Shown: positions 2,436 through 17,895, counted from the stretch's first letter. The stretch is 19,561 bases of DNA from a virus (IMGVR_UViG_2585427752_000010); one strand, 5' to 3'. Numbers and translations are program-made. The notes: generated by a model from the letters alone, not told the origin.

Positions 2436-2639
2436 ATGAACACCGACACTATTCCTACAAAAGGCTATATCAGACGCTTCCGCCTGGCTGAATTGCTGGG
2501 CGTTAGTGTATCCACCATCGACCGTAAAGTAAGAAACGGTTCACTACCACGTCCGGTAAAGCTGGGAGAAAAAATAACTGCGTTTGATGCGGTTGAGATT
2601 CACAACTGGCTGGCAGAACGCCGCGGGAAGGTGGCCTGA
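2436..2639 (+). CDS. alpA: AlpA-family helix-turn-helix regulator / excisionase-like protein
   Basis: 67 aa; HTH segment LAELLGVSVSTIDRKVRNGSLPRPVKLG...W matches the AlpA/prophage regulatory protein pattern; stop overlaps the next start (TGATG). Confidence 0.8.
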   Translation: MNTDTIPTKGYIRRFRLAELLGVSVSTIDRKVRNGSLPRPVKLGEKITAFDAVEIHNWLAERRGKVA

Positions 2640-3070
2640 TGGAAAAGAAAAACCGCCCATTACAGGCGGCTAATTCAGATATTCGCGTATCTGATGTTAC
2701 GCCCCTGACAAAATCCCTTCAAGCACCAAAGCGCACACCGAAAAAGCATCGTGCCAGAGTCTATATGCTGCGTACTGGTATAGAGGGATGGACAGAAAAT
2801 GACATTCTTCGCTACTGCCGTCTGTCTTCTGGTCGTAACTATGCAACAGAGTTAGAACGCCAGCTTGGAATCACTCTGGAGCGTATCGACGAAAAGAATC
2901 CTGATGGTATCGGAACACACCTTCGCTACCGTTTCTCCTGCCGTGGTGATGTTCTGAAAGTGATCACTCATATTAACCATCTTGCGAACATAAATGATCA
3001 CAACGGACTTTCTCAGCAGGAAATTGCCGACATTCTGAAACTCTACCCGGACGCGTTTAACGCCGCCTAA
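2639..3070 (+). CDS. hypothetical protein
   Basis: 143-aa ORF translationally coupled to alpA; basic N-terminus; no recognisable motif. Confidence 0.7.
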   Translation: MEKKNRPLQAANSDIRVSDVTPLTKSLQAPKRTPKKHRARVYMLRTGIEGWTENDILRYCRLSSGRNYATELERQLGITLERIDEKNPDGIGTHLRYRFSCRGDVLKVITHINHLANINDHNGLSQQEIADILKLYPDAFNAA

Positions 3071-3082
3071 CGGAGACTGAAA

Positions 3083-3916
3083 ATGAACATCGAAAAAAGC
3101 AGATTAATTTCTGAGGCTGCCCCTCATCTGAACGCCTCTCTGAGCACAATTAACGGTAATGAATTTGCCGCAATTGTCCCGGTTATTCCTGGTCATATCG
3201 GTGGGCGTGAAACCAATATTGTTAGCGCAAAAGCGTTACACAAAGCGTTGGGCGTGGGAAAAGACTTCTCTACATGGATCACTGATCGCATCTCTGAATA
3301 TGACTTCACCATTGGGCACGATTACTCAGTCCATAAAACAATTTCCCCAAATTTGGGGAAAAGCCCGAATGGCGCGGCTTACAGCAAGATAAAGCACTCT
3401 GGCAGACCCGGCAAAGACTATCTGTTAAGTGTCGGAATGGCGAAAGAACTGGCAATGATCGAACGCAATGATCAGGGTCGCGCTATCCGCCGTTATTTCA
3501 TCCAGTGCGAGGAAGAATTACAGCGTAGCGTGCCTGAAATCGCCGCCCGCTATCGTCGCCAGCTAAAAGCCCGTCTCAGTGCCGCAAACAACTTTAAGCC
3601 AATGTGCGATGCGCTGAATATGGCCCGTGCCGAGATGGGTAAAACGACGCAGCAACACCACTACACAAACGAGAGCAATATGATTTCTCGTATCGTTCTT
3701 GGTGGGCTAACTGCTAAGCAGTGGGCGCGGATAAATGGCTATTCTGGCGAACCTCGCGACCATATGAACGCAGAACAGCTTGAGCACCTCTCATATCTCG
3801 AAAGCACCAATATCACGTTAATTGATATGGGCATGGAATATGAGCAGCGCAAAGGAGACCTCCCCCGCCTGTCGCAACGCTGGCTCGCCAAGCGTCTGGA
3901 GGTGGTCAATGTCTAA
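3083..3916 (+). CDS. phage antirepressor-like protein (Ant/KilAC-type, tentative)
   Basis: 277 aa; GGAG RBS 7 nt upstream; segment AKALHKALGVGKDFSTWITDRI resembles antirepressor N-terminal domains; assignment is from recall, not a search. Confidence 0.6.
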   Translation: MNIEKSRLISEAAPHLNASLSTINGNEFAAIVPVIPGHIGGRETNIVSAKALHKALGVGKDFSTWITDRISEYDFTIGHDYSVHKTISPNLGKSPNGAAYSKIKHSGRPGKDYLLSVGMAKELAMIERNDQGRAIRRYFIQCEEELQRSVPEIAARYRRQLKARLSAANNFKPMCDALNMARAEMGKTTQQHHYTNESNMISRIVLGGLTAKQWARINGYSGEPRDHMNAEQLEHLSYLESTNITLIDMGMEYEQRKGDLPRLSQRWLAKRLEVVNV

Positions 3917-4091
3917 GCCAACAGGAACACCACAACCACAAAAACGCTACAAAGATGCCCACGGAGCACTCGTTACTGTCGAAAGCGTGTCTCACAACCG
4001 AGTGACGTTTTATCGCGACGGGTATCAATCGCCATGCGTACAACCGCTGGCGCGTTTCATGAAGGAGTTCGCGGAGGTTAACAAATGCTAA
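3909..4091 (+). CDS. small hypothetical protein (60 aa)
   Basis: ATG at 3909 overlaps the stop of the upstream gene; sequence MSKPTGTPQPQKRYKDAHGALVTVESVSHNRVTFYRDGYQSPCVQP... looks protein-like. The ORF track's 3822 start lies inside the upstream gene and was not used. Confidence 0.5.
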   Translation: MSKPTGTPQPQKRYKDAHGALVTVESVSHNRVTFYRDGYQSPCVQPLARFMKEFAEVNKC

Positions 4092-4522
4092 CCGTCCAGA
4101 AGAAGACATTTTCACTGGCTGGTATGTCGCCAAAATCCAGCAATATGACGGCAAAGTCAGGCATTAATACAGCAGATACAAGCAAAGTTTATCATTTGCT
4201 GGTGGTCGGAACGGATGCCTTAACCATATCAGAAATCTCGGGCGATGATATTAGCATTGAGAAGGTCAGCGGCTGCGCCAGAGAATTTCTGGTCGTAGAT
4301 GACCTGTTCTGCTCGCGTAGTGACTCCACAAAAACATTCGTCCACGCGCGTGACGTTAACGAAATGAGCGCGATGTACTGTGCTTCTGGTTCTTCCAATA
4401 GTGAGTTTTCGGAGTCCATAAAAAAGAGCTTGCCGTTATGCGGCAACACGGTTTATGGTTATAAGGCACCTCATAAAACGGGTGCCGGGTTTCGCAGCCC
4501 GGAAATGTACGAGGCGACACAT

Positions 4523-4544
4523 GACGCGCCGAGCGTCTTTTTTT
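4523..4544 (+). terminator. putative intrinsic terminator inside the ambiguous 4085-4746 region
   Basis: GACGC-gccga-GCGTC hairpin followed by TTTTTTT. Confidence 0.35.
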
Positions 4545-4746
4545 GTGCCGTTAGCCAGACTCACACTTTTTTCAGTGATGTGGTTATAATCCGCGTCGCT
4601 TGCAAAATTATGGTGGGCTGGACAGGGCAGCCGAAAGGCTGGCCGGTTTCCTTGTACGCCGGTACTGCGAACTCTGTTCAGTCCACCACCAGCGAGTTTC
4701 GCAGCTCCGGTGGTGGGAAGAATTCCCAGTACAAGGAGGCTGCCAC

Positions 4747-4941
4747 ATGCTGGCTACTACCCCTACCCAAAAACCGCAATTTATCTGGATTATCGCCGCA
4801 GTTCGCCGCGATTGCCCGACAATTACCGCCAAAATTCATCATATTGCTGCCGAGTCTGAACGCGATGCTCGCCGTTCTCTGGTGCGCGATCACGTCTGCT
4901 TTTTTGCTGGTCGTATCCGCATGGAGGTGGCACATGATTAA
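4747..4941 (+). CDS. small hypothetical protein (64 aa)
   Basis: ATG at 4747 preceded by AGGAGG with 7-nt spacing; product MLATTPTQKPQFIWIIAAVRRD... is charged and protein-like; stop overlaps the next start. Confidence 0.5.
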   Translation: MLATTPTQKPQFIWIIAAVRRDCPTITAKIHHIAAESERDARRSLVRDHVCFFAGRIRMEVAHD

Positions 4942-5152
4942 AACCTACGATGTGCATATGGATCCCCTCGAACGCACAAGCCAGATCATCACACTGACAG
5001 AAGTGATTAATGACATTCTGGTGAGCAACTCTCCCTCACGAGACGAAAAACTGAAGGCGTTACTCGCGATATTGGATCTCGCCGTTCGTGACGTTCATTT
5101 CCTGCTGGAAGGTGGACAAATGCCATGCAAAACGGGGGCAACCAATGAATAA
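4934..5152 (+). CDS. small hypothetical protein (72 aa)
   Basis: ATG at 4934 preceded by GGAGG; product MIKTYDVHMDPLERTSQIITLTEV... is protein-like; it is the in-frame 3' portion of the long 4085..5152 ORF. Confidence 0.55.
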   Translation: MIKTYDVHMDPLERTSQIITLTEVINDILVSNSPSRDEKLKALLAILDLAVRDVHFLLEGGQMPCKTGATNE

Positions 5153-5339
5153 CTCAATTAATGCCCCTCGCCTTACGTCCGCACTTCAATTAATCGAGCA
5201 AGCAGCGGCTGTCCTGGTTGCTGTCAGTCTTTCGGCTGAAGAAATGGACGCTGCTGATGTCGTGGATGCGATTAAAGCGTGCTCATCTTTGGTTAACGAT
5301 GCCCGTGCAGAGCTGGTAATTCTTGGTGGTGAAAAATGA
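5145..5339 (+). CDS. small hypothetical protein (64 aa)
   Basis: ATG at 5145 in frame within the 5088 ORF; overlaps the upstream stop; downstream stop overlaps the next start (ATGA). Confidence 0.5.
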   Translation: MNNSINAPRLTSALQLIEQAAAVLVAVSLSAEEMDAADVVDAIKACSSLVNDARAELVILGGEK

Positions 5340-5599
5340 ATATCAACTTAATTTATCGTCATCCGTGTGAGCTGGAAATTGAATCATTGCTGGGGCGCGA
5401 AGAGCCATATCCAGACACATTCACTCCCGCAGATTGCGCGACTGAACGGCTTACCAGAGCGCGCACAGGTCTGGTTCATGTGATGAATGAGATTGTTCCC
5501 TCGGTGGGAGGGGAACAGGCGACAGTAATCAATAGCTGGCTACAAAAAGTTACCTCCCTGATAGATATCGGTTTAATCGATGTGGAGAGTGCGAAATGA
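5336..5599 (+). CDS. small hypothetical protein (87 aa)
   Basis: ORF with ATGA start/stop overlap on both sides, indicating translational coupling in an operon. Confidence 0.65.
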   Translation: MNINLIYRHPCELEIESLLGREEPYPDTFTPADCATERLTRARTGLVHVMNEIVPSVGGEQATVINSWLQKVTSLIDIGLIDVESAK

Positions 5600-5817
5600 C
5601 CAACATCCAGCTCATTGAAGCGCAATGTCGCATCGAACAGGTTCAGACTGTTTTAGGGTTCTGGCTTGAAGGGGCCAGCCCCAGCAACAGAGACAAGTTA
5701 ATGATTGGCGCGGTTATGTCACTGCTCAATGGCGTACCAGAAGCTATTCAGGAAGCGGACGAATTGTTGGGCAAATATGAGTTACAGAATCATTCAGGCG
5801 AGGCGAAACATGAATAA
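5596..5817 (+). CDS. small hypothetical protein (73 aa)
   Basis: ORF coupled to its neighbours by overlapping stop/start codons. Confidence 0.65.
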   Translation: MTNIQLIEAQCRIEQVQTVLGFWLEGASPSNRDKLMIGAVMSLLNGVPEAIQEADELLGKYELQNHSGEAKHE

Positions 5818-6412
5818 TTTCTTAACTTTCCATGCAGAAGCAACGCCTGACGGCGTAAACATCATGTACCGCAGCAACGATGGCATGACAGAACGCGTTG
5901 AGGCCATCTCATATATTGATGCCGTAAATCGTCTGGATGCCGGGGATTATGACGATAAACCAGATGAAGGTATGTCAATACATCTCGCTATTGCCGATGG
6001 CGGCAACCAGGGATATTTCGATTACACATCACAGCATAACGTCATTATGTGGAGATGGCTGATCGCAACAGTATTCATGCTGGAAATGAGAGAGGAAAAC
6101 GGCACTGTCAGCATCATTGATGATACTGGCAATCCTTCCGAAGTGGCTGTTTATTCCAACGGCATCGTCGCCATGCCGCTGTATCCAGTAGCAGAGCGCC
6201 TCGCTATGGCAAACAACATTGAGGGCGCGATGATAGAACGTTTTGGCATCGAGTCTGGCACAGAACGCGCCATCATTTTCTACAGAGCCATGATGGATGT
6301 GGAACAAGGAGCACTGACTCCATTTGGGCGTGAAACGCTTGCTGAACTTCACAACAGCTTTATAGCTGAACTGAATGAAAACGGCATGCCAGCGGAACCA
6401 GTGACGCACTGA
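5810..6412 (+). CDS. hypothetical protein (200 aa)
   Basis: ATG at 5810 overlaps the upstream stop; acidic product MNNFLTFHAEATPDGVNIMY...; the ORF track's earlier 5705 start would overlap the upstream gene extensively. Confidence 0.7.
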   Translation: MNNFLTFHAEATPDGVNIMYRSNDGMTERVEAISYIDAVNRLDAGDYDDKPDEGMSIHLAIADGGNQGYFDYTSQHNVIMWRWLIATVFMLEMREENGTVSIIDDTGNPSEVAVYSNGIVAMPLYPVAERLAMANNIEGAMIERFGIESGTERAIIFYRAMMDVEQGALTPFGRETLAELHNSFIAELNENGMPAEPVTH

Positions 6413-6422
6413 GGATGGAGCC

Positions 6423-6764
6423 ATGATTACTAAAAATTTCCGACTGAATGCGCTGGCAAATAAGTATGCGTCGGCACTGTATAACCACATTACCTCCACC
6501 AGCGGCGGGGACTATTTCATGGTTGATGCGGACGGCGAGGCCGTCCGTGTGGAAATCGTCAATGGAGTAAAAGGCGTTCGCAGCCTGATCGATAGCTACA
6601 CACTGGCAGCCATGAAAGTGTTCTACCCGCAGTGGGAAACCGTGGGGATCGAGCTTCTTGAACGTTGCGTCACTAAGGACGGATTGACTGACGTCGGGCG
6701 TGAGATATGGCAAAGCATGGTTAATGACATGGGCGCAACTGTAGCGGGAGGTTCTCATGCGTGA
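6423..6764 (+). CDS. hypothetical protein (113 aa)
   Basis: ATG at 6423 with GAGGA RBS; stop overlaps the next start. Confidence 0.7.
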   Translation: MITKNFRLNALANKYASALYNHITSTSGGDYFMVDADGEAVRVEIVNGVKGVRSLIDSYTLAAMKVFYPQWETVGIELLERCVTKDGLTDVGREIWQSMVNDMGATVAGGSHA

Positions 6765-7128
6765 AAATGCAGAAATGGCGCTTAGCTCCGCAATCGGAGA
6801 GCAGGTGGCAAAGATTGCTGGTGCTGTGTGGATTCATAACCTTCATTCTACTGGTGAAGAGAAAATGGCAATTCAGACGCCAGAGGGACGCACCATTACT
6901 ACATCTCTGAAGCCGTCAGATGTTTGTGATCTGATTTGCGCATTCATGTACCCAGCAATGAGGACTGTCCACGGCGATAAGTGGAAACTTGCGACAACCG
7001 CTGAATTTGATATGTGGCTAAACAATGATGGCATGCTGACTGATTACGGAATAACCAAGTGGCAGATGCTGGTTAGCCATATCGCAAACGCTATAGACCA
7101 CGTGGGGTACGGTGATGCGAAACATTGA
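6757..7128 (+). CDS. hypothetical protein (123 aa)
   Basis: ATG at 6757 with GGAGG RBS; 3' end overlaps the primase start. Confidence 0.7.
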   Translation: MRENAEMALSSAIGEQVAKIAGAVWIHNLHSTGEEKMAIQTPEGRTITTSLKPSDVCDLICAFMYPAMRTVHGDKWKLATTAEFDMWLNNDGMLTDYGITKWQMLVSHIANAIDHVGYGDAKH

Positions 7129-9466
7129 TCTTATCCGTCAGGTTATCAGTGCGTCTGAAAACAACTGGCCTCATGTGCTGGGCTGCCTGAACATAAATGT
7201 CCCTGACTCTCCGCGCCGTCATGCTCCCTGCCCTGCATGTGGGGGCAAAGATCGATTCCGGTTCGATGACAACGGGCGCGGTAGCTTCATCTGTAATCAG
7301 TGCGGCGCTGGTGATGGGCTGGATTTAATTAAACGCGTAAATAACTGCGACACAACAGAGGCGGCGCTTCTTGCCGCTGATGTTCTGGGTATTGATTACC
7401 GGACAACGGAAACACCAGAAGCCACCAGCCAGAAACGGGAACAACTGGAAACCGAGCGCCAGCGACGCGAACAGGAGCGCCTGAAAAGGGCAGAGAAGGA
7501 CGAACAACAAAGACGGGATACGTTTTCCCGTCAGTTTGATGACATGCGCAGAAAGGCTGTAAACGGCAAATCTGATTATCTGGTTGCGAAAGGGGTAGGT
7601 GATTTTACATTCCCCGTGTTGCCCGATGGATCTCTGTTGCTGGCGCTGGTGGATAAATCCGGCGCAGTCACAGCAGCACAGACTATTACCTCACATGGTG
7701 AAAAAAGACTCCTGACAGGTTCGGCAAAGCGGGGGGCATATCACGCCATAAACGCACAGAAACGACCTCACAGCATCATAATTGCTGAGGGGGTGGCTAC
7801 CGCCCTGTCGTGCCATTTAATTCGCCCTGACGCAATGACAGTGGCAGCAATCGACGCTGGCAACCTGTTGCCAGTAGCGGAAGTCATGCGCAGAACATAT
7901 CCGCAGGCACAAATAATCATTGCTGCAGATAACGATCACCAGCAAGGAGACTCAGAAAGTGGAGGGATCAACACGGGGAAAGATGCCGCAGAGAGGGCCG
8001 CTATTTCCGTAGCTGGCAGGGTGTCTCTGCCACCGACTGACTATAAAGCCGACTGGAACGACTATCACCAACAACACGGGCTGGCGGCAGCCACAGCAGC
8101 ATTTAAAGATTCGATGTACCAGCCACGGGGGAAAGGGGCGCAGGTGAAAAATCACAAACAGTCAGTCGGGGCGCTGAATGAGATCAGTTCTGGCGAGGTG
8201 TTAAGCGATGATGAAATTGCTGTCCTCGAAGAAATCAACCGGACGTTTACGCATGTCACCATCGGCGGGAAACACAAGGTGGGGTCGCTAAAGCCTTCTC
8301 AAACCGGCGGTGTATCGCACGTTTTCGAGGATTTATCACAATTTCAGCATTATTTTCATCATAAACCGAGAGTCGCCAGAAAGCTGGCGGGATCGGCGTG
8401 GCTGTCATGGAGTGGGAAGAACTACAAGCCAGGAGGCGTAGGATTTTATCCAGTACCAGACAAATGCCCTGACGATGTTTTTAATCTGTATGAGGGGCTG
8501 GCACTGGAACCAATTGAAGGAGATTGCACGGTATACCTTAATCACCTGTTGCAGGTTGTCTGTGCCGGTAATGAAGAGGCATACCAATATCTTATCCAGT
8601 GGATGGCGCACATTATCCAAAAGCCTGATGAAAAACCGTCCGTGGCAATCGTGATGAAATCTGTCCCGGGCACAGGGAAAGGCACAACGGTTAAACCGCT
8701 GCTGCAAATACTGGGGCAGTACGCCGCCCACATTAACGGGGCGGGACATATTTCAGGGCGCTTCAATTCAATACTTGCTAACAAGCTACTGGTATTTGCT
8801 GACGAAGTGACGATCCACAAGCCGTCTGAAGCTGACAGACTTAAAGCGATTATTAGCGAACCGACGTTTAACCTTGAGCGCAAGGGAATTGATGCTGAAC
8901 CAATGCCGAATTTTGCCCGGTTGATATTTGCCAGTAACAGCACACAGGTATTACAGGCAGGGATAAGAGAGCGTCGCTATCTCGTGCTTGAGCCATCTCC
9001 TGAAAAAGCACAGAGCCGGGAGTATTTTGATCGGCTGTACAGTTGGCTTAATGATGGCGGTGCCGCAAAGTTGCTTTGGCATCTTAAAGGGGTGGATCTC
9101 TCAGGTTTTGACCCTCAACGAGCGCCACAGACCGATGCCTTACGTGAAGAAATCTTGCTGGGGCTGTCTGGCGTTGAATTGTTTCTTTATGGCGAGCTAA
9201 TCAATGAACCTCCGTTTAATGGCGAAGTCCGTTTGTTTGCAAAGGATATGGTTAGTCGGTTTGTAGCGTGGTCGCTTGAGCGTGGGGAAAAGCTTAAAGA
9301 ACCAGCTGCCAGATCACTACTGGGTAAATCACTTGCACAAATGGGGCTGGTGAAGCATGGAAGACCAGACCGAGGGAATGGCGTGTTCTACGAACTACCA
9401 GAGGTCGGAGTTCTACAGGCTGCGTTTGCCCGTCTGATCGGTATGGGGGGTTATGATGTTTTTTAA
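7112..9466 (+). CDS. P4-alpha-like bifunctional primase-helicase
   Basis: 784 aa; N-terminal zinc ribbon CPACGG...CNQCG; TOPRIM-like motifs IIIAEGVATA and IIAADNDH; C-terminal P-loop NTPase region with Walker A-like PGTGKGTT and Walker B-like LLVFADEV. Start may be GTG 7112 or ATG 7115. Confidence 0.9.
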   Translation: MMRNIDLIRQVISASENNWPHVLGCLNINVPDSPRRHAPCPACGGKDRFRFDDNGRGSFICNQCGAGDGLDLIKRVNNCDTTEAALLAADVLGIDYRTTETPEATSQKREQLETERQRREQERLKRAEKDEQQRRDTFSRQFDDMRRKAVNGKSDYLVAKGVGDFTFPVLPDGSLLLALVDKSGAVTAAQTITSHGEKRLLTGSAKRGAYHAINAQKRPHSIIIAEGVATALSCHLIRPDAMTVAAIDAGNLLPVAEVMRRTYPQAQIIIAADNDHQQGDSESGGINTGKDAAERAAISVAGRVSLPPTDYKADWNDYHQQHGLAAATAAFKDSMYQPRGKGAQVKNHKQSVGALNEISSGEVLSDDEIAVLEEINRTFTHVTIGGKHKVGSLKPSQTGGVSHVFEDLSQFQHYFHHKPRVARKLAGSAWLSWSGKNYKPGGVGFYPVPDKCPDDVFNLYEGLALEPIEGDCTVYLNHLLQVVCAGNEEAYQYLIQWMAHIIQKPDEKPSVAIVMKSVPGTGKGTTVKPLLQILGQYAAHINGAGHISGRFNSILANKLLVFADEVTIHKPSEADRLKAIISEPTFNLERKGIDAEPMPNFARLIFASNSTQVLQAGIRERRYLVLEPSPEKAQSREYFDRLYSWLNDGGAAKLLWHLKGVDLSGFDPQRAPQTDALREEILLGLSGVELFLYGELINEPPFNGEVRLFAKDMVSRFVAWSLERGEKLKEPAARSLLGKSLAQMGLVKHGRPDRGNGVFYELPEVGVLQAAFARLIGMGGYDVF

Positions 9467-9495
9467 TATAGTCTTTTTACAAGAAGATCGTTTTT

Positions 9496-9600
9496 ACCTG
9501 TACCACCTATACCACTTTGCTAATTCAGCATTAAAAACAATGTGTTATAGTGGTACAGGTCAATATCTTACCTATACCAGACCTGTACCACCTATACCAT
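9496..9600. repeat. iteron cluster 1 (putative origin-type repeats) just downstream of the primase
   Basis: ACCTGTACCACCTATACCA at 9496-9514 and 9581-9599, inverted partial copy GTGGTACAGGT at 9550-9560, and partial copy CCTATACCAG at 9571-9580. Confidence 0.6.
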
Positions 9601-9642
9601 TAACAAACGCATTTCTTCTGGCTGGCTGAGAGGGAACAACCA

Positions 9643-9873
9643 ATGATGAGCACACCATTTTACAAAGTGCGCCAGTTAGCTTCTTCCTCTGGCTGGCAGC
9701 TACGGTTTGAGGGGCGTTCAGACTGGCTACCCATTGCGGCATGGGCGAATGTTGAAATGTGTATTGACGGCGATACCGTTGAAATCATTATTCCCTGCGT
9801 GGCAAGTCGGGACGGCTGTATAGAGCCAACAGATATGGCAGCAGAAATCAGAGAGGTAAAACATGAGCAATAA
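9643..9873 (+). CDS. hypothetical protein (76 aa)
   Basis: ATG at 9643 preceded by GAGAGGGAA; stop overlaps the next gene's start. Confidence 0.6.
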   Translation: MMSTPFYKVRQLASSSGWQLRFEGRSDWLPIAAWANVEMCIDGDTVEIIIPCVASRDGCIEPTDMAAEIREVKHEQ

Positions 9874-10600
9874 CTATTGCATACCGCAGGGAATGACCAG
9901 AACGGAGCGCGAAGAATTAAAAAGTTTCGCTACACAGTGCGGGAATGCTGGCGACATCCAAAGTCTGGAACGCACTTTAATTATGATTGCGCACTGGATG
10001 CGTCAGGGGCAAAGGGTTTCATTTACTGAATATGCCAGCCAGTGGACAGAGGCACAGCGCGAACGGAGCGACGGTAATCACTCAACACCCGAAATGGCGA
10101 AGCAATGGCCTTTCAGTGGTAAACGCTGTATCAGTCCCGGTGGTTCAGATTATTACCCTGCTGGTGTGGGAGATGAGCCATGTTGTGACGAGACTGAAAT
10201 CCGCCACGCAGTGACAGTAATTACCGCTGAATACCCACAATTTAACCTTGACGGACTGGCGCTCCACAACCGGAATGCGGACTGGGAAAACCCGCTTGAT
10301 AACCCGTCATTTATCGTATCGGCGAAAAGCTGCCTGAGATGGATCAGAGACAACGGGATGAGTAATGCCCAGATTGAGAGCTTCCCGCAGGATAACCCCA
10401 CATCTGACACGTTGAAGCATGAAGTGGAGCGATATAACCAGATAAACCACCAGCACAGTGATCACCCGCACTATATCCCCAACGGAGCATTTATTGCGGC
10501 GATGGTGGCAAGCGGCTACAAGGTTAAGCCAGCGGGAAGAATGAACGCATTTTTCAATATTTCAAAAAAGGGATTATGTGCTGCTATGGGTAAAAATTAA
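9863..10600 (+). CDS. hypothetical protein (245 aa)
   Basis: ATG at 9863 preceded by GAGAGG; Cys- and His-containing product with no motif recognisable by eye. Confidence 0.7.
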   Translation: MSNNYCIPQGMTRTEREELKSFATQCGNAGDIQSLERTLIMIAHWMRQGQRVSFTEYASQWTEAQRERSDGNHSTPEMAKQWPFSGKRCISPGGSDYYPAGVGDEPCCDETEIRHAVTVITAEYPQFNLDGLALHNRNADWENPLDNPSFIVSAKSCLRWIRDNGMSNAQIESFPQDNPTSDTLKHEVERYNQINHQHSDHPHYIPNGAFIAAMVASGYKVKPAGRMNAFFNISKKGLCAAMGKN

Positions 10601-10605
10601 ATAAA

Positions 10606-10709
10606 TGGTACAGGTCTGTACAGGTGGGGAGAGGTCATTTTTACCCACCTGTACCACCTGCAGGCCGCGTCACACAAGGGTTTGTGACATGGTGGTACAG
10701 GTGGTACAG
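10606..10709. repeat. iteron cluster 2 (same GGTACAGG/CCTGTACC family)
   Basis: TGGTACAGGTCTGTACAGGTGGG (10606-10628), inverted CCCACCTGTACCACCTG (10644-10660), TGGTGGTACAGGTGGTACAGC (10689-10709), plus a GTCACA-N8-TGTGAC inverted repeat (10669-10688). Confidence 0.6.
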
Positions 10710-11074
10710 CAAAAACAGCGATTTTCTTTATAAGGTATGTTTTGCTCATCTGGCAGACGGAGGTATTCGCTGCGGTTTGGCACATAGCCCAGAACAGCAA
10801 AGAGTTTTACGAGACTTTTGTAAAATCCAGTGTACAAGGGCGTGACGTTTTTGAAGGAGAGACCTACGAAATTTTCGTAGTTCAAAAAATAGCCTCTGAG
10901 ATGTTGTTATGCCTGTTCAGCAAACCATCCGCATAGCTGATCGCGAATCAAATTACCAATGGAGCCAGAAGCAAGGGCAGAACTGGAAAGCGCCTGCCGT
11001 GAAGAGTAATGCGACATCGTAAATATAGTTTTTAGAGTCCATAAAAAAACTGTCAAAACCTGACATACAGAACG

Positions 11075-11108
11075 ATGCCACCAGCTACTGAGCGGTGGCA
11101 TTTTTTTG
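11075..11108 (+). terminator. rho-independent terminator
   Basis: ATGCCACC / GGTGGCAT perfect 8-bp stem with 11-nt loop, followed by TTTTTTT. Confidence 0.65.
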
Positions 11109-11169
11109 TGCTATTTGTTTCATATTTTGCAATTACGATGATGAATATTGCGATTTGTGAAACTATAAT

Positions 11170-11189
11170 AACTGTTGTTTTATACAGTT
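11170..11189 (+). promoter_or_regulatory. LexA-box-like site (CTGT-N8-ACAG) between a TATAAT element and the operon's first RBS
   Basis: AACTGTTGTTTTATACAGTT: CTGT at 11172-11175, 8-nt AT-rich spacer, ACAG at 11184-11187; a consensus -10 TATAAT lies at 11164-11169 and the RBS AAGGGGG at 11192-11198. Confidence 0.4.
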
Positions 11190-11202
11190 CTAAGGGGGCG
11201 TT

Positions 11203-11364
11203 ATGGCTATTTCAGTAAAGCCGGTATTGATAAGTGAGAAGCAAATGGAAGCGATAAAGAAAATTCAGGAAGAGCAGCGTAAAAAATCAGGAATTGGAGT
11301 AGCGCCAACTCTGCATGAAATTGCTCGAGGGTTAATAGATAAGGCGCTGGCAGGCTGTATGTGA
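11203..11364 (+). CDS. small DNA-binding-like protein (possible ribbon-helix-helix), 53 aa
   Basis: Not in the ORF track (below its size cutoff). ATG at 11203 with strong RBS TAAGGGGGCG; product MAISVKPVLISEKQMEAIKKIQEEQRKKSGIGVAPTLHEIARGLIDKALAGCM has a strand-helix-helix-like pattern. Confidence 0.45.
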   Translation: MAISVKPVLISEKQMEAIKKIQEEQRKKSGIGVAPTLHEIARGLIDKALAGCM

Positions 11365-11380
11365 AAATGGATGGCATCGC

Positions 11381-11842
11381 ATGGAACTAAAATTTATTGA
11401 TAACCCTGTGCGATTACAGGCCTTTCTTAACGATCCTGGCAATACCGAAAATATTGTTGAGCCGGGGCACACGTACTACATCAAGCCTGATGCGGTATAT
11501 CTCGGCATCTACGAAGGATTGGTGCTGGCTGGCGTTCATGAAGTGCGTAACTTCTGGCATAGCATTGTTGAATGCCATGCGGTGTACGACCCCGGATTCC
11601 GTGGTGAATATGCACTGCAAGGGCATCGATTATTCTGCAAATGGCTTCTCGAAAACTCACCATTCCTTAACAGCATCACTATGGTTCCTGACACCACGAA
11701 ATACGGACGGGCAATTATCCGTTTGCTTGGCGCTACCCGTGTTGGTCACCTTGATGATGCTTATATCAGATGTGGTAAACCCGTCGGCGTAACGCTTTAT
11801 CAGTTAACTCGGCAACAATATAAGGAATTCAGCGAATGTTAA
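11381..11842 (+). CDS. hypothetical protein (153 aa), second gene of the operon
   Basis: ORF starting 17 nt after the small gene; stop overlaps the next start (ATGTTAA). Confidence 0.75.
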   Translation: MELKFIDNPVRLQAFLNDPGNTENIVEPGHTYYIKPDAVYLGIYEGLVLAGVHEVRNFWHSIVECHAVYDPGFRGEYALQGHRLFCKWLLENSPFLNSITMVPDTTKYGRAIIRLLGATRVGHLDDAYIRCGKPVGVTLYQLTRQQYKEFSEC

Positions 11843-12513
11843 TTACCCATATAGCTCATAAACATCTCAATCGTGCCGTATACGAAAAAGGCGGTGATGG
11901 TGGTGCCTCTAAAGCTCAGGCGAAGGCCCAGCAGCAGGCAATTGATTTGCAGCGCGAGCAGTGGAATACGGTGATGAATAATCTCAAGCCGTATGCAGAA
12001 GTCGGATTGCCTGCTTTACAACAACTACAAGGACTGATGACTCTGGAAGGGCAGAATAAAGCCGCGAATGATTTCTTTGGTTCTGGTTTATATAAAACAC
12101 AGGCAGATCAGGCCCGTTATCAGAACCTTGTCTCAGCAGAAGCTACCGGGGGGCTTGGCTCAACAGCTACCAGTAACCAGTTATCTTCCATTGCGCCCAT
12201 GCTTTATAACAATTGGCTTAGTGGGCAAATGCAAAATTATGGAAACCTGCTAAATGTCGGGATGAATGCGGCATCAGGACAGGCAACGGCAGGGCAAAAC
12301 TACGCCAATAATACCGGACAACTCTTGCAGGGGCTTGGCGCTATTCGTGCAGGTCAGGCGCAGCAGCCATCCAGTCTTGCGCGTGGTATTGGTGGGGCAG
12401 CATCAGGCGCTTTAGCGGGTGCGCAACTTGGTTCCGTTGTTCCTGGAATAGGTACTGCGGCAGGCGCTATTGGTGGTGGGCTTATTGGTCTTGTTGGGGG
12501 GCTTGGATTCTAA
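11836..12513 (+). CDS. Gly/Ala/Gln-rich protein with C-terminal glycine-zipper hydrophobic segment (225 aa)
   Basis: AAGGAA RBS; low-complexity Q/A/G/N-rich body; C-terminus GIGGAASGALAGAQLGSVVPGIGTAAGAIGGGLIGLVGGLGF has repeated GxxxG spacing typical of membrane-inserting glycine zippers. Confidence 0.75.
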   Translation: MLITHIAHKHLNRAVYEKGGDGGASKAQAKAQQQAIDLQREQWNTVMNNLKPYAEVGLPALQQLQGLMTLEGQNKAANDFFGSGLYKTQADQARYQNLVSAEATGGLGSTATSNQLSSIAPMLYNNWLSGQMQNYGNLLNVGMNAASGQATAGQNYANNTGQLLQGLGAIRAGQAQQPSSLARGIGGAASGALAGAQLGSVVPGIGTAAGAIGGGLIGLVGGLGF

Positions 12514-13826
12514 TGGCGACATGGCAACTTGGCGGGCTGCCTAGCATGGCACCGCAAAATGATAATGCTCCTCGTTCTTCCGTTCCTCAGCCTGTGCAGT
12601 ATCAGCAGCAGCCAAACGTAGGTTTAATGGCGCTACAGGGGCTAAGAGGCGTTGCTGAGATTAATCAGCAGGCGCAAATTTCCCAGCAGCTAAAAGAATA
12701 TCAGGCACGGTTGGGTAGTGCGGTAGCTAATAATGATCGTGTTGGCGTGCAGAAGTTAATGGCCCAGTATCCCCAGTTTATGGCTGATTCTCAAAAACAG
12801 ATGGGATTCATTGATGCTGAGCAAAATCGGCAGACCGCTGACGCTGCCATGAATCTGCGTCTTGCGTCACAAACTGGAGATCCACTGACCATGCAGAAGG
12901 CCATTCAGCAGGCAAATCCAGTATTACAGCGATTTGGTCTTCCTGCTGAAGAGGTTTATCAGTCTTGGCAGAATGACCCACAGGAATTCAACAGAATCAC
13001 TGACCTCATCCACCTCCATGCTGATCCAAATAGTTACTTTAGTGTTCAAGAGAAGCAGCAAGGGCAGAGTATTGCACAGCAGAACGCAGATACATCTGCA
13101 TATAATGCTCAGGTTAATGCGGAACAGGGTAATCGGCGTCTCGATATGGAGCAGTTCAAAGCCCTATCCGATAACCAGCTACGCACGAGAGAAATGGTTC
13201 TGAAAGCACGACTTGGACGTGCTCAAAATGACATCGAGAGAGACAAGCTCAATGCTGAACTGAGCAAGGTACAGCAGGCGAAAGTGGAGAAGATGAACGA
13301 TAAAATTAATACTGTTGTAGGTAACATCGACTCCTTGAACTCTGCGCTTGAAGTGGGTCATGAACTGGCGGGAATTGTAGGGAAACATCCTTCGGCCGTT
13401 ACCCGTTCGCAGAACTATAACCCCCTGACGCTGGGGTTTGGATTCCTTCCTGATGTAGCAGAAGACACACGAAGCCTACGCGCCAAAGCTGATGAATACA
13501 ACCTAAAGGTTATTCTGCCTAGCCTCAAAGGGACTTTTGGCTCTAACCCAACCGAAGGGGAAAGGGCTGCCCTTATGCAATCTCAAAATGGCATTAAGTC
13601 AGCAACCAGCAATGAGGCATTTTTGCGAGAGTTGAATAAAGCGCAGGACGTAATTATTCGAATGCAGAAACGACAGATTGCCGGGCTCGGTATTCCTGTA
13701 ACCAAATCTAAGGACGAAGAAACTGATACCAAAATGCTGTTGCAGGATCCTTCTCTGGTTAAGGATTATGTGACCGCACATGGCTATCTGCCGGAAAGTT
13801 ACTATCAGGCAAAACTTAAGGGATAG
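12513..13826 (+). CDS. Gln-rich, probably coiled-coil protein (437 aa)
   Basis: ATG overlaps the upstream stop (TAATG); Q-rich N-terminal half and charged, heptad-like central region. Confidence 0.8.
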   Translation: MATWQLGGLPSMAPQNDNAPRSSVPQPVQYQQQPNVGLMALQGLRGVAEINQQAQISQQLKEYQARLGSAVANNDRVGVQKLMAQYPQFMADSQKQMGFIDAEQNRQTADAAMNLRLASQTGDPLTMQKAIQQANPVLQRFGLPAEEVYQSWQNDPQEFNRITDLIHLHADPNSYFSVQEKQQGQSIAQQNADTSAYNAQVNAEQGNRRLDMEQFKALSDNQLRTREMVLKARLGRAQNDIERDKLNAELSKVQQAKVEKMNDKINTVVGNIDSLNSALEVGHELAGIVGKHPSAVTRSQNYNPLTLGFGFLPDVAEDTRSLRAKADEYNLKVILPSLKGTFGSNPTEGERAALMQSQNGIKSATSNEAFLRELNKAQDVIIRMQKRQIAGLGIPVTKSKDEETDTKMLLQDPSLVKDYVTAHGYLPESYYQAKLKG

Positions 13827-13828
13827 CA

Positions 13829-16549
13829 ATGATGGCACAACTGACAGAAAAACAGAAAGCCTATTCCCGTCATCTCGATGAAAAATATGGTTTCCCATCA
13901 GGGACGATGGAAACATTAGTTGGCAATGAATCTAGTGGTAACGGAAGTGCCGAGTCACCGAAAGGAGCTAGAGGATTTGCTCAACTGATGCCCTCAGTAA
14001 TGAGTGATGCTGGTTATCGTGGAACAGATCCGCGCTCACTGCCATTTGAAAAGCAAATGGATATCGCAGCAAACCATCTCAATAAAGGAATGAAGCGATT
14101 TGGTGATATAGGTATGGCATTGGCTGGGTATAATTCTGGCTATGCTCGTATTAATGCCGTAAGAAACGGTAAATCTACACTGCCAGATGAAACGGCTAAT
14201 TACGTAAGTAAATTTGCAGATGCCGGAATAATCCCTGATGACAGTGAAATCTTGCAGTTTGCACAAACCAGTCAACATCGCAATCTTCAGCAGCCTGACT
14301 ACTCAGAGCTTGATAAAGAAATCTCTCAGGTGGGAGATATTTCTGCATGGGAAGCAAAACGTCAGCAATTTAAGAACATAGAAGCAGGACTACCAACAGC
14401 CAGTTCATGGGAGCAGAAAAGAGCTCAGTTTCTCGCCGATGAAAATGCCGGGGAACCGCAGCAGCAAGTAGCCAAGTCTAACCTTAATCCTGAGATGGAA
14501 TATCTTTCGCCAGGACTGAAAGCTGCGCCAGAGCAGATGGCCAGAGGGATTGCTAATATACCGTTTGATGTAATGGACGCAGGCGTGGGGGTAGTCAATG
14601 CGGCGCAATCAGCCGGAGCATGGGCAGCTCAGAAGCTTGGTGTGGGTGATGGCACATACACGCCCATATCACCTGTCTTTCGCCCAGTAGACCAACCTAC
14701 AGATCCATACGCGCAGGCTGGTGAGCAGCTAGCACCTTACCTTATTACAGGATTAGGTGCAGGAAAGGCAGCTACCGCAGCTTCTTCAGTTGCCAACGCT
14801 CCACGTGCTGAACGTGCGGCCACAAAGGTGGCTAGTATGTTGGCAGAAAACCTGCCAGGTACATTGGTGAACGCCCAAAAGAACGGGCAGATCAGCCCAG
14901 AAGACCTAGCAAAAGAGACAGGTATTGGCCTAGCAGGATCGCTAGGAGCACGCGCTTTAATAAAGAGCGGACAGACAGCCAGTGACGTAATGCGAGATGT
15001 ATTGCGGAGTAATACAAATCAATCAGGCCATGTGTTAGGGGCAGCAAATACTCTGGAAACCGCCAATGATGTATCGAAAGCAGCGCGTTCTGCCGTAGGC
15101 CGAGAGCATATCGCATCGCAGGCATCAAACGTCAGAGATGATGTCGCTAAGGCGGCGAAAATTACTGGTATTAATATCAACACCCTGACGCCTGGAATGC
15201 GCTCAGGTAGTCGTGGAATTGCCCAAGCAGAAGGTGTTCTGGCATCAACTCCTGGGAATGTTCAGGATGCTCACCTTACGGCCTTCAATGAAATATCCTC
15301 AAAGTTGAATAAGCAGTTGTCTGATTTCGGTGCTGAGTCTGGAAGCGCATCAGAAAAAAGCGCAGCAATTAAAGAGCGCATCATCGCGAGCCTCAGTGAT
15401 ATGAAAACAGCAGAGAATATGGCATGGGCAGAACTGCGAAGCACGATGCCACGCGAAAGGATGAAAATGAGTAATGGGATGGCTGTCGTCCAAGCAGAAA
15501 AAGCAGCCAATGTTCCACTCAGCCCGGAGATGAAACAGTTTCAGGCTGCCAACAACCAAGGTGGCGGCATAACCTTCGACGGGATGAAGGCATGGCGTGC
15601 TAAGTTTGCTGATGCTGAACAAGCAAACACCCGGGCAGGTAAGGCCAATGCCGCCCGGATTGCCGGAGAAATGCGCAGAGCTATCACTGATGACATGCGC
15701 ATCATGGCTGAAAAAGGAAACTTCCTCACAGAATGGCAGAAAGCTAACGATCTCTCTAAAAGTTACATTATCGCCAAACAAAATGCCGAATCTGTTTTTG
15801 GTCGAGATCTCGCATCAGACGCTATGGTAAGAAAAGGTGCCGATACGCTTAAGGCATCCGCAAACACTGGAACGGGAGCTTTTCACCGTCTTATCTCCGC
15901 GCTGCCGGAAGCAGAACGCCAACCAGCAATAGCATCTATTCTTCAGCATGCTGTGGCGCAGGGAGAGAAGGGAGGAATCGGTGAAGAATCTGGTATCCAG
16001 TATTTTGCCAAGCTCATGACCCAGCAGAATGTAAACGCCATCAGTCGTCATGCGCCAGATCTCGGTAGAATGATGAAAGAGTTCGGTGTACTCGCTAAAG
16101 CCAGCACCAGACCGCAGCGATACGTAGAGCGCACGGGAAGAACAACTGAGGCTCTCAAAACGCTCGATTCAGGCCTTCCAAAGATCGTCGGCGTGATTAT
16201 GAACGGAGTTCAACAGTCAGGTGCGATCGCTGGAGGCTTTGGCGGTGGTGTAATTGGTTCGATTAGTGGTTTGGTTGCTGGTGGCGCGCTGAGAAATACT
16301 GTGGCTAAGATTGGGGCGACAAGAAGTGGTAGATATGCGATAGAGAAAGCCGTTCAGGAAGCTACAAAAGCAGTGCGCGCAGGGGCATCACCAGCAGCGA
16401 TCGCCGCAGCAGAGAAACGATTTTCGGCCAATAAAATTGCCATGAAAGCAATTCGTGATGCCGTTGGGGCTGAAGAATTCGTGAAACTGACAAGGGCCGG
16501 GATTGTAGCTACCCTCAGTGGCATGAAAGATGTTAGCGAATGGGAATAG
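13829..16549 (+). CDS. large protein with N-terminal lytic transglycosylase (SLT) domain and C-terminal Gly-rich hydrophobic segment (906 aa)
   Basis: N-terminal NESSGNGSAESPKGARGFAQLMP fits the SLT catalytic ES...GA.G..QLMP pattern and ALAGYNSGYARI fits the AYN.G motif; long Ala-rich body; near the C-terminus GGFGGGVIGSISGLVAGGAL. Confidence 0.85.
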   Translation: MMAQLTEKQKAYSRHLDEKYGFPSGTMETLVGNESSGNGSAESPKGARGFAQLMPSVMSDAGYRGTDPRSLPFEKQMDIAANHLNKGMKRFGDIGMALAGYNSGYARINAVRNGKSTLPDETANYVSKFADAGIIPDDSEILQFAQTSQHRNLQQPDYSELDKEISQVGDISAWEAKRQQFKNIEAGLPTASSWEQKRAQFLADENAGEPQQQVAKSNLNPEMEYLSPGLKAAPEQMARGIANIPFDVMDAGVGVVNAAQSAGAWAAQKLGVGDGTYTPISPVFRPVDQPTDPYAQAGEQLAPYLITGLGAGKAATAASSVANAPRAERAATKVASMLAENLPGTLVNAQKNGQISPEDLAKETGIGLAGSLGARALIKSGQTASDVMRDVLRSNTNQSGHVLGAANTLETANDVSKAARSAVGREHIASQASNVRDDVAKAAKITGININTLTPGMRSGSRGIAQAEGVLASTPGNVQDAHLTAFNEISSKLNKQLSDFGAESGSASEKSAAIKERIIASLSDMKTAENMAWAELRSTMPRERMKMSNGMAVVQAEKAANVPLSPEMKQFQAANNQGGGITFDGMKAWRAKFADAEQANTRAGKANAARIAGEMRRAITDDMRIMAEKGNFLTEWQKANDLSKSYIIAKQNAESVFGRDLASDAMVRKGADTLKASANTGTGAFHRLISALPEAERQPAIASILQHAVAQGEKGGIGEESGIQYFAKLMTQQNVNAISRHAPDLGRMMKEFGVLAKASTRPQRYVERTGRTTEALKTLDSGLPKIVGVIMNGVQQSGAIAGGFGGGVIGSISGLVAGGALRNTVAKIGATRSGRYAIEKAVQEATKAVRAGASPAAIAAAEKRFSANKIAMKAIRDAVGAEEFVKLTRAGIVATLSGMKDVSEWE

Positions 16550-16699
16550 ACGCTCTAACTAACAAAACCATAATAGCCAAGGACGGCATACTGATATTGA
16601 GCCAACTATCAAAATTCCATATCACATTACGGGCCTGTGGCTTACATTCGCTTACAGTGATGATAATTTATAACCACGCAATTCTTAGGTGAGATTATC

Positions 16700-17398
16700 A
16701 TGATTAAAAATCTTCTTTTAATATTATCCCTGTCATTATTGGCTGGATGCGTACAAAAACCGTTAGTAACGGTCAATGCTTTATCTTCCGGGCAATCTGT
16801 CGGTAAGAAGTTCTTGATCATCCCCGCAAGCCAAGAACTTTGGAACACCAAACAGATTGAATACACTCAAATAGCTACGGTAGTAGCCGCCAGTTTATCA
16901 AGCCAAGGATATACACAAGTTAAAGATGAAAAATTGGCTGACCAGGTAATTCTCTTGAACTTTTTGAGAAGCGGGGCCATTTCAAATACTCGTAATGTAA
17001 CCATCCCAATATACGGGCAAACTGGTGTGAGCTCAGCAACAACGTACGGAAACTCGAACACCACGTTCAATAGTTATGGTGGTGGCTACGGTACAGCTAA
17101 TATCACTGGAACGGCAACAACAGTTTATACGCCTACTTATGGAATTACTGGCGCGTATAACACAACTGTGACGGACACGTTCTACGGCGCAGGGGTGATA
17201 CTCCAGTCGTTTGATGCCAAGGCTTATCTCAATAATAGGCAGATTAATATGTTATGGAAAGTTGGTAGCTCAGTCGTCTCGCAACAGTCTGATGGAATTG
17301 CTGATTACAAGGGGTTGGCGAGAATAGCCGCTAGCTATGCCGGGAAAAATACAGAAGGTGATATAACTTTTAATGTTGACCCTAAAGCACCAAATTAA
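16700..17398 (+). CDS. lipoprotein, Thr/Gly/Tyr-rich (232 aa)
   Basis: Signal peptide MIKNLLLILSLSLLAGC with lipobox LAGC; AGGTGA RBS; mature part rich in T/G/Y/N repeats; lower GC than the upstream operon. Confidence 0.8.
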   Translation: MIKNLLLILSLSLLAGCVQKPLVTVNALSSGQSVGKKFLIIPASQELWNTKQIEYTQIATVVAASLSSQGYTQVKDEKLADQVILLNFLRSGAISNTRNVTIPIYGQTGVSSATTYGNSNTTFNSYGGGYGTANITGTATTVYTPTYGITGAYNTTVTDTFYGAGVILQSFDAKAYLNNRQINMLWKVGSSVVSQQSDGIADYKGLARIAASYAGKNTEGDITFNVDPKAPN

Positions 17399-17405
17399 CT
17401 AATAA

Positions 17406-17427
17406 GCCCGGTACGCCGGGCATTTAT
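17406..17427 (+). terminator. weak terminator-like hairpin after the lipoprotein gene
   Basis: GCCCGG-tacg-CCGGGC perfect 6-bp stem followed by a T-poor tail (ATTTAT). Confidence 0.35.
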
Positions 17428-17562
17428 GCCCCTATTATTCATGAATCGCTTTTTCTAGAAGGTATGCGACAAACGTTAAGTGACATTGCCTACACATTCG
17501 GGGCGGGATTTCAAATCCGCTCCCAGTTGATGGGGTCGTTACAGTACGCGCATATCCGCTTT

Positions 17563-17633
17563 ATGTGAAACAGGAAGATTTTTCTGATATCACTGCCACA
17601 GCAAAACACCAATTTCGTGACCAGTACGCGCAC
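17563..17633. repeat. copy A of a ~70-bp repeat family (copies B at 17838-17867 and C at 19473-19543)
   Basis: A and C align over ~70 bp (ATGTGA.A..GGA.G.TTTTTC.GA.ATCACT ... CAATTTC..GA.CA.TACGCGC) with small indels; B is a shortened copy (CTGATAT-TTTGCGACAAGTACGCGCGCG); a fourth core CAGTACGCGC lies at 17542-17551. Confidence 0.6.
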
Positions 17634-17895
17634 GATGGAGGGGAGTACCATAAAACTGTTCTCTACATAAGTCAGAGTGGTGGTGATGTGTTGATTATCG
17701 GCGTATATGCGCACAGGACGCGCTATGACGATGTTTTATGCGGGTACACCAATCACATGTATCTGGTGTGATAAATCGCGTTACATGACCTCTCATGTTG
17801 TGCTGGTGGTTATCACGACGTTCTGAATCTGGCCTTTGCCTGATATTTTGCGACAAGTACGCGCGCGTAGCATCGACAGCATACACATTGGATAT

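Follow-up and report, generated by a model that had tools for sequence, protein, structure and literature searches.

C4-type antisense RNAs are stable RNAs that are cut from a longer transcript (RNase P/PNPase) and repress in trans. In the satellite P4, the immunity region follows the order PLE, seqA, cI RNA with seqB, and seqC, with the genes eta and kil nested over it. For this region, the pairing between CI and seqA has been described, and P4 eta has been described as having an internal constitutive promoter, being coupled to an alpA homolog, and bringing about anti-termination through its translation (PMC10111431). The same paper, citing Forti et al. 1999, gives the eta open reading frame (ORF) as translated and functional, and it reports phage-inducible chromosomal islands (PICIs) in which relatives of CI and seqA are found with the Rfam C4 and isrK models. 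In Salmonella, IsrK of Gifsy-1 is a structural homolog of P4 seqA, is followed by a processed RNA, and acts in trans to activate translation; Hfq binding and trans-activation have been shown only there (PMC4825925). P1 and P7 carry the related immI region (c4, icd, and ant), which is represented in Rfam by the C4 (RF01695) and c4-a1b1 (RF03163) models. Here, we analyzed positions 4085 to 4746 of IMGVR_UViG_2585427752_000010, a viral DNA of 19,561 nucleotides (nt) that we refer to as the window and that is, by its gene order and sequence identity, an EcCIMP1-family PICI, i.e., a phage satellite of E. coli. An earlier note on this DNA had left it ambiguous whether the segment was part of a larger protein, a fused or decayed gene, or a regulatory leader. 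We think it likely that the segment is an immunity (self-repression) switch, with an RNA module of the P4/P1 type lying inside an eta-like ORF that has been kept open by evolution. Switches of this kind are known, and the segment would not represent a new protein.

Both regulatory RNAs of the P4 system were found in the segment with the Rfam models (all features below are on the plus strand unless stated). An IsrK/seqA-type RNA lies at 4466 to 4543 (RF01394, 69 bits against a gathering threshold of 50), and a C4/P4-CI-type antisense immunity RNA lies at 4606 to 4693 (RF01695, 81.1 bits against a threshold of 45, over the full length of the model, 1 to 87). The IsrK match ends in an intrinsic terminator at its 3′ side, and a consensus scan recovered the hairpin with its stem at 4523 to 4537 and a T-run reaching 4544. 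Since Rfam places isrK at 4466 to 4543, the “internal terminator” recorded in the earlier note is the terminator of the isrK small RNA. From 4466 to 4760, the predicted fold is much stronger than that of shuffled versions of the sequence (z = −5.35). When applied to the P4 genome, the same C4 model matched the cI RNA gene (8420 to 8507) and the same isrK model matched seqA (8615 to 8692), both of which lie inside the 199-codon eta ORF (8168 to 8767). P4 and the window had no nucleotide-level match by blastn, and the link between them runs through covariance and profile models. Of the possibilities in the earlier note, a regulatory leader like the immunity region that precedes the primase operon in P4 was thus borne out.

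The pairing elements expected of a C4 RNA are present on both of its sides. The second C4 hairpin carries a 12-nt recognition loop, b′ (TTTCCTTGTACG, 4647 to 4658), and the a′ element CTGCGAA follows at 4665 to 4671. Downstream of C4 lies the seqC/a2b2 target region (4698 to 4739), made up of a2 (TTCGCAG, 4698 to 4704) and b2 (GTACAAGGAGG, 4729 to 4739), the latter containing the Shine-Dalgarno (SD) sequence AAGGAGG (4733 to 4739) of the icd-like gene that starts at 4747. Upstream, the isrK RNA carries a1 (TTCGCAG, 4491 to 4497) in the loop of its second hairpin and b1 (TGTACGAGG, 4506 to 4514) in its linker. The b′ loop (UUUCCUUGUACG) is complementary to GUACAAGGAGG at 4729 to 4739 over 11 contiguous pairs and to UGUACGAGG at 4506 to 4514 over 9 nt, while a′ (CUGCGAA) pairs with UUCGCAG twice, at a1 and at a2, with 7 nt each. 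The complements of a′ and b′ are therefore found both upstream and downstream of C4, where they extend over the ribosome-binding site (RBS) of the first gene.

This three-way complementarity is maintained while its sequence changes. A search of IMG/VR for a C4 pattern in which the loops were left free gave another 120 loci, which together with the E. coli loci yielded 99 unique cores. Among these, we found 38 distinct b′ loops, each matching its own two targets. On average, b′ paired without interruption over 10.8 nt at its downstream target and over 9.2 nt at its target in isrK, compared to 6.3 nt (downstream) and 6.1 nt (upstream) when loops were set against the targets of other loci as a control. 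The a′ core fell into five types, each matching its own a1 and a2, and the downstream target, SD included, was located 33 to 37 nt 3′ of C4. In the C4 helices themselves, 27 pairs (5 of them fixed beforehand by the search pattern) were 99.9% canonical across 57 unique sequences, and 14 pairs showed compensatory double changes. Close relatives of the window (L003 and L004) have flanks that are about 99% identical to it; in alignments that also included the distant loci L005 and L006, divergence was concentrated between 4490 and 4745, in the pairing elements. From these alignments, the hypervariable a′ and b′ elements and their targets are the likely determinants of immunity specificity. For EcCIMP1-type islands, the likely immunity determinants (a′, b′, and their targets) are thus identified, and islands with different b′ loops are predicted to be hetero-immune. 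As a separate observation, the isrK-C4 module occurs twice in tandem in some lambdoid prophages, and the two copies differ in their b′ loops (L010 at 1501 to 1689 and 2157 to 2345, and also L030, L063, and L090). Each of these modules is followed by a Rha-type gene, an arrangement that would give two immunity specificities in series.

The entire RNA module sits within one long ORF of 355 codons (4085 to 5152), which RefSeq names as an “ash family protein.” As the earlier note had said, its ATG at 4085 has a GGAGG before it, and its frame remains open for 355 codons and merges with that of the gene at 4934. The ATG occupies 4085 to 4087 and the GGAGG 4073 to 4077 (7-nt spacer), the frame reaches 5152, and the 4934 gene has 72 codons and an RBS of its own. 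The ORF starts upstream of a putative internal promoter (4430 to 4459) and contains this promoter, isrK, and C4. It then crosses icd in the +1 frame of that gene, and its last part is the product of the 4934 gene. The start codon overlaps the stop codon (4089 to 4091) of the preceding DUF4222 gene by 7 nt, which, together with the GGAGG, is the geometry of coupled genes; this overlap suggests that the two genes are translationally coupled. In contrast to the eta/kil type of ending, which we found in L005, L006, and L011, the window ORF is not in frame with icd (4085 mod 3 = 2; 4747 mod 3 = 1) and extends 211 nt past the icd stop. The earlier note had posed the long ORF and the leader as alternatives. 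Both hold at once, since the RNA genes sit inside a frame-conserved ORF as they do in P4 eta/kil.

We compared this frame with the related loci. Of 97 unique loci, 96% had no stop in the frame of the long ORF (the Ash frame) between isrK and the 3′ end of C4, while the two remaining frames were open in 19% and 9%. The distance from isrK to C4 was 84, 87, 96, or 126 nt (0 mod 3) in 94/97 loci. Within the poorly conserved spacer between the two RNAs, the Ash frame contained 1 stop in 738 codons, while the other frames contained 31 in 762 and 20 in 786; an Ash-frame stop occurred in 1 of 55 unique spacers compared to about 23 expected from shuffles. Taking the 0.025 to 0.04 stops per codon in the other two frames of this variable spacer, we estimate that about 220 stop-free codons would arise with p of about 1e-3 or less, in agreement with the earlier note that an open frame of this kind was unlikely by chance. 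From stop to stop, the Ash ORF had a median of 280 codons, and its start codon overlapped or abutted the stop of the upstream ORF in 68 of the 91 evaluable loci, most often by 4 nt. One locus, L008 (1333 to 2895, a Klebsiella-like island in an E. coli genome), has an Ash frame of 520 open codons that extends into another tyrosine-recombinase gene, the second one.

The relationship of the long ORF to the downstream gene divides the loci into two classes. It was in frame in 58/76 scorable loci and in the +1 frame in the remaining 18, which include the window. At the start of icd, a difference of 2 nt separates the window type from the in-frame type (GCCACATGCTGGCT versus GCCATAATGGCT). In the out-of-frame class, the +1 frame ran without a stop across the entire downstream gene and past its end in 16/16 unique sequences, which comprise three types of downstream gene, compared to 10/22 in the in-frame class. 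The direction of these counts is consistent with selection that keeps ribosomes able to cross the RNA module, and by this comparison conservation of the RNAs is not enough to explain the open frame. The locus adds no new mechanism; what is peculiar to it is an eta-like ORF that is out of frame with icd yet stays open through it into the next gene.

The promoter that would serve the module also has a counterpart in P4. A putative PLE-like constitutive promoter is located at 4430 to 4459, with a −35 of TTGCCG (4430 to 4435), 18 nt of spacing, a −10 of TATGGT (4454 to 4459), and a predicted start near 4466. This pair aligns with the TTGCCT…TATAGT upstream of P4 seqA and is kept in L005 and L006 despite their diverged flanks. 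The TATAAT hexamer that had been called promoter-like is present at 4585 to 4590, between isrK and C4. A role as a promoter is doubtful, as the scan found no acceptable −35. The hexamer is not conserved in other loci with the same 126-nt spacing and is deleted in L004 and L006, where the module is intact, and on these grounds we rejected it as a dedicated promoter of C4. It is probably incidental and possibly a lineage-specific extra promoter for C4.

The first gene downstream of the module, which the earlier note had rightly placed in another frame behind its own RBS, encodes an Icd/Kil-like protein of 64 amino acids (aa) (4747 to 4941). It matches the NCBIfam phage_ICD_like model NF033153 at 71.7 bits against a cutoff of 25. 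The Kil part of P4 Eta (aa 146 to 193) is itself Icd-like and matches this model, and the window protein is 43% identical to it. Judged by its position and family match, the 4747 gene would come first among the genes under antisense control and encode a putative inhibitor of host cell division. The next gene (4934 to 5152, 72 codons), which forms the C-terminal part of the long ORF, has its own SD (GGAGG, 4923 to 4927) and the top codon-usage score in the neighborhood; its product had no family match in the Pfam and PHROG profiles.

Compared with the described systems, the locus is closest in layout to P4. The order of elements is the same, the promoters share the form TTGCCN…TATNGT, and in both cases the long ORF starts upstream of the internal promoter, is coupled or predicted to be coupled to an upstream gene, and covers a module whose first controlled gene is Kil/Icd-like. 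In both, the module lies upstream of the primase operon of an integrated satellite. The differences are that P4 eta is in frame with kil, whereas the window ORF crosses the Kil/Icd-like gene in +1 and ends as the next product, and that the upstream partner is an alpA homolog in P4 but a DUF4222 gene, three genes after alpA, in the window. The window also has a shorter isrK-C4 spacer and a different a′ core (CTGCGAA), and it is a PICI with a P22-like helper, while P4 is a P2-dependent satellite. Like the window, P1/P7 immI has a′ and b′ in C4, targets upstream (a1b1) and downstream over the icd RBS (a2b2), and an Icd-like first gene. P1 controls icd and ant, whereas in the window an antA-type antirepressor gene lies upstream and small ORFs of unknown function and primase lie downstream. 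Gifsy-1 (isrK-orf45-anrP) has an IsrK with its own terminator and partial read-through, a stable processed RNA downstream (STnc1160), and a small ORF with a sequestered RBS and translational coupling to the next gene (PMC4825925), all of which the window has or would have. It differs in being a lambdoid prophage and not a PICI.

The RNA families, the covarying three-way complementarity, the kept frame, the coupling geometry, and the homology to eta and kil are results from the sequences. By analogy with P4 and P1, we infer transcript ends, processing, Rho dependence, and translation as follows, with the covariation lending support to the quiescent state. In the quiescent island, the constitutive promoter at about 4430 to 4459 inside the ORF would start transcripts near 4466, most of which would end at the isrK terminator (4523 to 4544) and give the IsrK/seqA RNA. 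Read-through transcripts would carry C4/CI (4606 to 4693), which would be processed to a stable antisense RNA. Its b′ and a′ elements would pair with a2/b2 (4698 to 4739) and cover the SD of the icd/kil-like gene; without icd translation, transcription would terminate prematurely and the downstream replication (primase) operon would remain off. The a1 and b1 elements of IsrK would pair with the same C4 elements, which could promote termination, as in the P4 model, or titrate C4 and activate translation, as in the Gifsy-1 model. Upon induction, transcription would enter from upstream through alpA, antA, and the DUF4222 gene. Ribosomes finishing DUF4222 would re-initiate at the 4085 ATG and translate the 355 codons across isrK, C4, and the targets, and their passage would melt the RNA structures and shield the RNA from Rho. 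Transcripts initiated upstream would therefore be insensitive to immunity and would reach the replication genes, as shown for P4 eta. For the protection from Rho, the selection against stops gives indirect support.

The only Pfam domain of the 355-aa ORF falls on the RNA genes. Phage_ASH (PF10554) matched aa 124 to 232 at 99.7 bits, which corresponds to nt 4454 to 4780, i.e., isrK, C4, and the start of icd. In P4, Phage_ASH covers Eta aa 22 to 146, over the seqA and cI RNAs, and it matches the eta or “cI protein” ORF that overlies seqA and cI (L013, 7888 to 8767). Since the matched DNA is the isrK-C4 region, the Phage_ASH family reflects RNA conservation read in one frame. The P4 derepression protein epsilon belongs to a separate family (PF25738, “Derepression”), and Phage_ASH does not match epsilon. 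A survey of P4-like satellites took PF10554 as its marker for epsilon (PMC8628076). As PF10554 matches eta and epsilon is PF25738, this marker in fact detects the RNA immunity region and not epsilon. The “Ash” domain, which serves as a marker for P4-like satellites and is counted in “Bro network” analyses, is then the translation of two regulatory RNA genes.

Several observations weigh against an eta-like switch at this locus. The related loci are Enterobacteriaceae prophages and satellites, and their counts are not phylogenetically independent. Conservation of the RNA sequence should by itself account for some of the frame conservation. The promoter at 4430 to 4459 has 8/12 matches to the consensus, under the threshold of the promoter scan, and we infer its assignment from the alignment with P4. 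As P4 eta ends in Kil and the window ORF does not, the “nested genes” mechanism is not literally transferable. P1-like plasmids (L007) have the same RNAs without a spanning ORF, indicating that translation is not obligatory for the RNA switch. In a check of codon usage in all six frames, which the earlier note had proposed, the ORF frame did score best over 4085 to 4453, but weakly (0.05 bits per codon), and over a terminase fragment in this part the minus strand scored best. Between the window and EcCIMP1, the N-terminal 123-codon part differs by 16 nonsynonymous and 8 synonymous changes. Given this weak coding signal and the excess of nonsynonymous differences, the N-terminal 123 aa appear to be a spacer and not a constrained protein.

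Some of these points would also fit a long ORF that is only an annotation artifact, in which an untranslated IsrK-C4 leader is stop-free in one frame by a coincidence of its conserved RNA sequence and gene callers and Pfam have made an “Ash protein family” of it. The exact coincidence of Phage_ASH with the two RNA genes, the P1-like plasmids that do without a spanning ORF, and the weak coding signal all agree with this, as do the occasional calling of the region as a pseudogene by PGAP and the N-terminal 123 aa, for which Pfam and PHROG gave no family and which, beyond the first 15 or so residues, are unrelated to their counterparts in L005 and L006. We nevertheless judge it quite unlikely. 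Constraint on the RNA does not account for the depletion of stops in the variable spacer, the changes of spacer length in multiples of three, the +1 frame of the downstream gene that is open in every out-of-frame locus, or the usual start/stop overlap with the upstream gene, and the equivalent ORF of P4 is translated and functional (PMC10111431).

A genuine 355-aa regulatory protein of the “Ash/Bro-network” kind (antirepressor or repressor), selected for its amino acid sequence and with the RNA matches secondary, would explain the score of the Phage_ASH match, the several PHROG “transcriptional regulator” families that match, the fusion of the domain to Rha domains in lambdoid prophages, and the RefSeq name. 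We consider this very improbable. Its only conserved “domain” is the RNA region, and the variation there follows RNA rules, with compensatory stems and with hypervariable loops that covary with distant targets on the same strand, a pattern not expected of a protein domain. Moreover, what follows at the C terminus varies between loci (Icd, Rha, or the 4934 product), the N terminus is not conserved, part of the product would be icd translated in +1, and the true derepression protein of P4, epsilon, is of the other family. We rate decay no higher. Under that explanation, a frameshift at the start of icd broke an eta/kil-type nested gene and left the 355-codon frame as a recent accident without function, in line with the majority of in-frame loci and the 2-nt difference of the window. 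Of the “fused or decayed gene” put forward in the earlier note, what stands is that this 2-nt change takes the ORF off the icd frame; decay does not, as the frame stayed open. The out-of-frame arrangement occurs with at least three types of downstream gene, always with the alternative frame open beyond that gene, and it is intact in about 480 complete E. coli genomes at 87 to 99% identity, among them the L004 variant with compensating deletions of 1 nt and 38 nt.

Within the eta-like switch that we favor, selection may act only on an open frame across IsrK and C4, whatever that frame encodes, including a second frame through icd in the lineage of the window. If so, hundreds of lambdoid prophages and satellites of enterobacteria would generally bypass their RNA immunity by ribosome transit, and Phage_ASH would be a by-product of RNA conservation and not a protein family. 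The analysis also resolves a recurrent inconsistency in RefSeq, seen when the window is compared with L001, L002, and L136: from one and the same DNA, PGAP has called a 355-aa ash family protein in some genomes and an Icd-like protein next to an ash pseudogene in others. The version with the pseudogene leaves the gene at 4934 to 5152 unannotated.

Within the N-terminal part of the ORF, the minus strand carries a piece of gene 3, the small-terminase gene of P22-type phages, in inverted orientation (4233 to 4339, 107 nt, 92% identical to P22). Positions 4318 to 4339 are the counterpart of the annotated 22-bp P22 pac site, in a degenerate form (15/22 identical). A real minus-strand gene at 4192 to 4449 was considered and rejected, because the terminase similarity lies in another, stop-interrupted minus frame as a fragment of 32 aa. 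Kapi1, the known helper, was likewise rejected as the source of the fragment, to which it has no similarity. In E. coli genomes, the sequence at 4296 to 4400 occurs only inside these islands. Candidate roles for the fragment are those of a packaging signal and of an antisense element, and it may also be a scar of recombination. It is possible, though doubtful, that it serves EcCIMP1-type islands as a packaging signal or as an antisense RNA against the small-terminase mRNA of the helper, or else that the overlap with icd has a dual-coding function.

EcCIMP1 is an experimentally verified PICI of E. coli MP1 that is mobilized by phage Kapi1 (PMC11773190). The paper describing it names an “Ash family protein,” does not contain the terms isrK or C4 RNA in its text, and states that the packaging mechanism is unknown (PMC11773190). 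The window and EcCIMP1 are 96 to 98% identical at the nucleotide level over 2629 to 8136 and 10801 to 17876, and they share the 355-codon ORF and the b′ loop, which would equate to the same immunity specificity. Two parts of the window, 1 to 2628 (the integrase and alpA side) and 8136 to 10800 (the primase C terminus and beyond), had no match in the MP1 island, suggesting that the window is a mosaic. The gene order is otherwise that of the family: integrase, int-alpA RNA, AlpA, AntA, DUF4222, the RNA module with ash, icd, and further genes up to primase, DUF2824, and P22-like ejection-protein genes. EcCIMP1 and the window share the type of integration site, which in relatives is tRNA-Thr adjoining proA. 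The segment was found in about 480 to 490 of 5426 complete E. coli genomes (about 9%).

Other features of the window lie around the switch. The DUF4222 gene occupies 3909 to 4091 (Pfam, 87 bits, with the same annotation for homologs in RefSeq). A 321-aa ORF between integrase and alpA (1356 to 2321) had no match in Pfam, PADLOC, or PHROG, and neighboring ORFs of unknown function had no defense-system or phage-family match in PADLOC or PHROGs. The int-alpA RNA motif (1269 to 1335; RF02996, 60.6 bits) is directly 3′ of the integrase gene. P22-like virion and ejection genes are found at 11381 to 16549, namely, DUF2824, gp7, gp20 (Inj_translocase), and a 906-aa gp16-like protein with an SLT domain, and within this region 11381 to 11970 is 81% identical to Kapi1 27948 to 28536.

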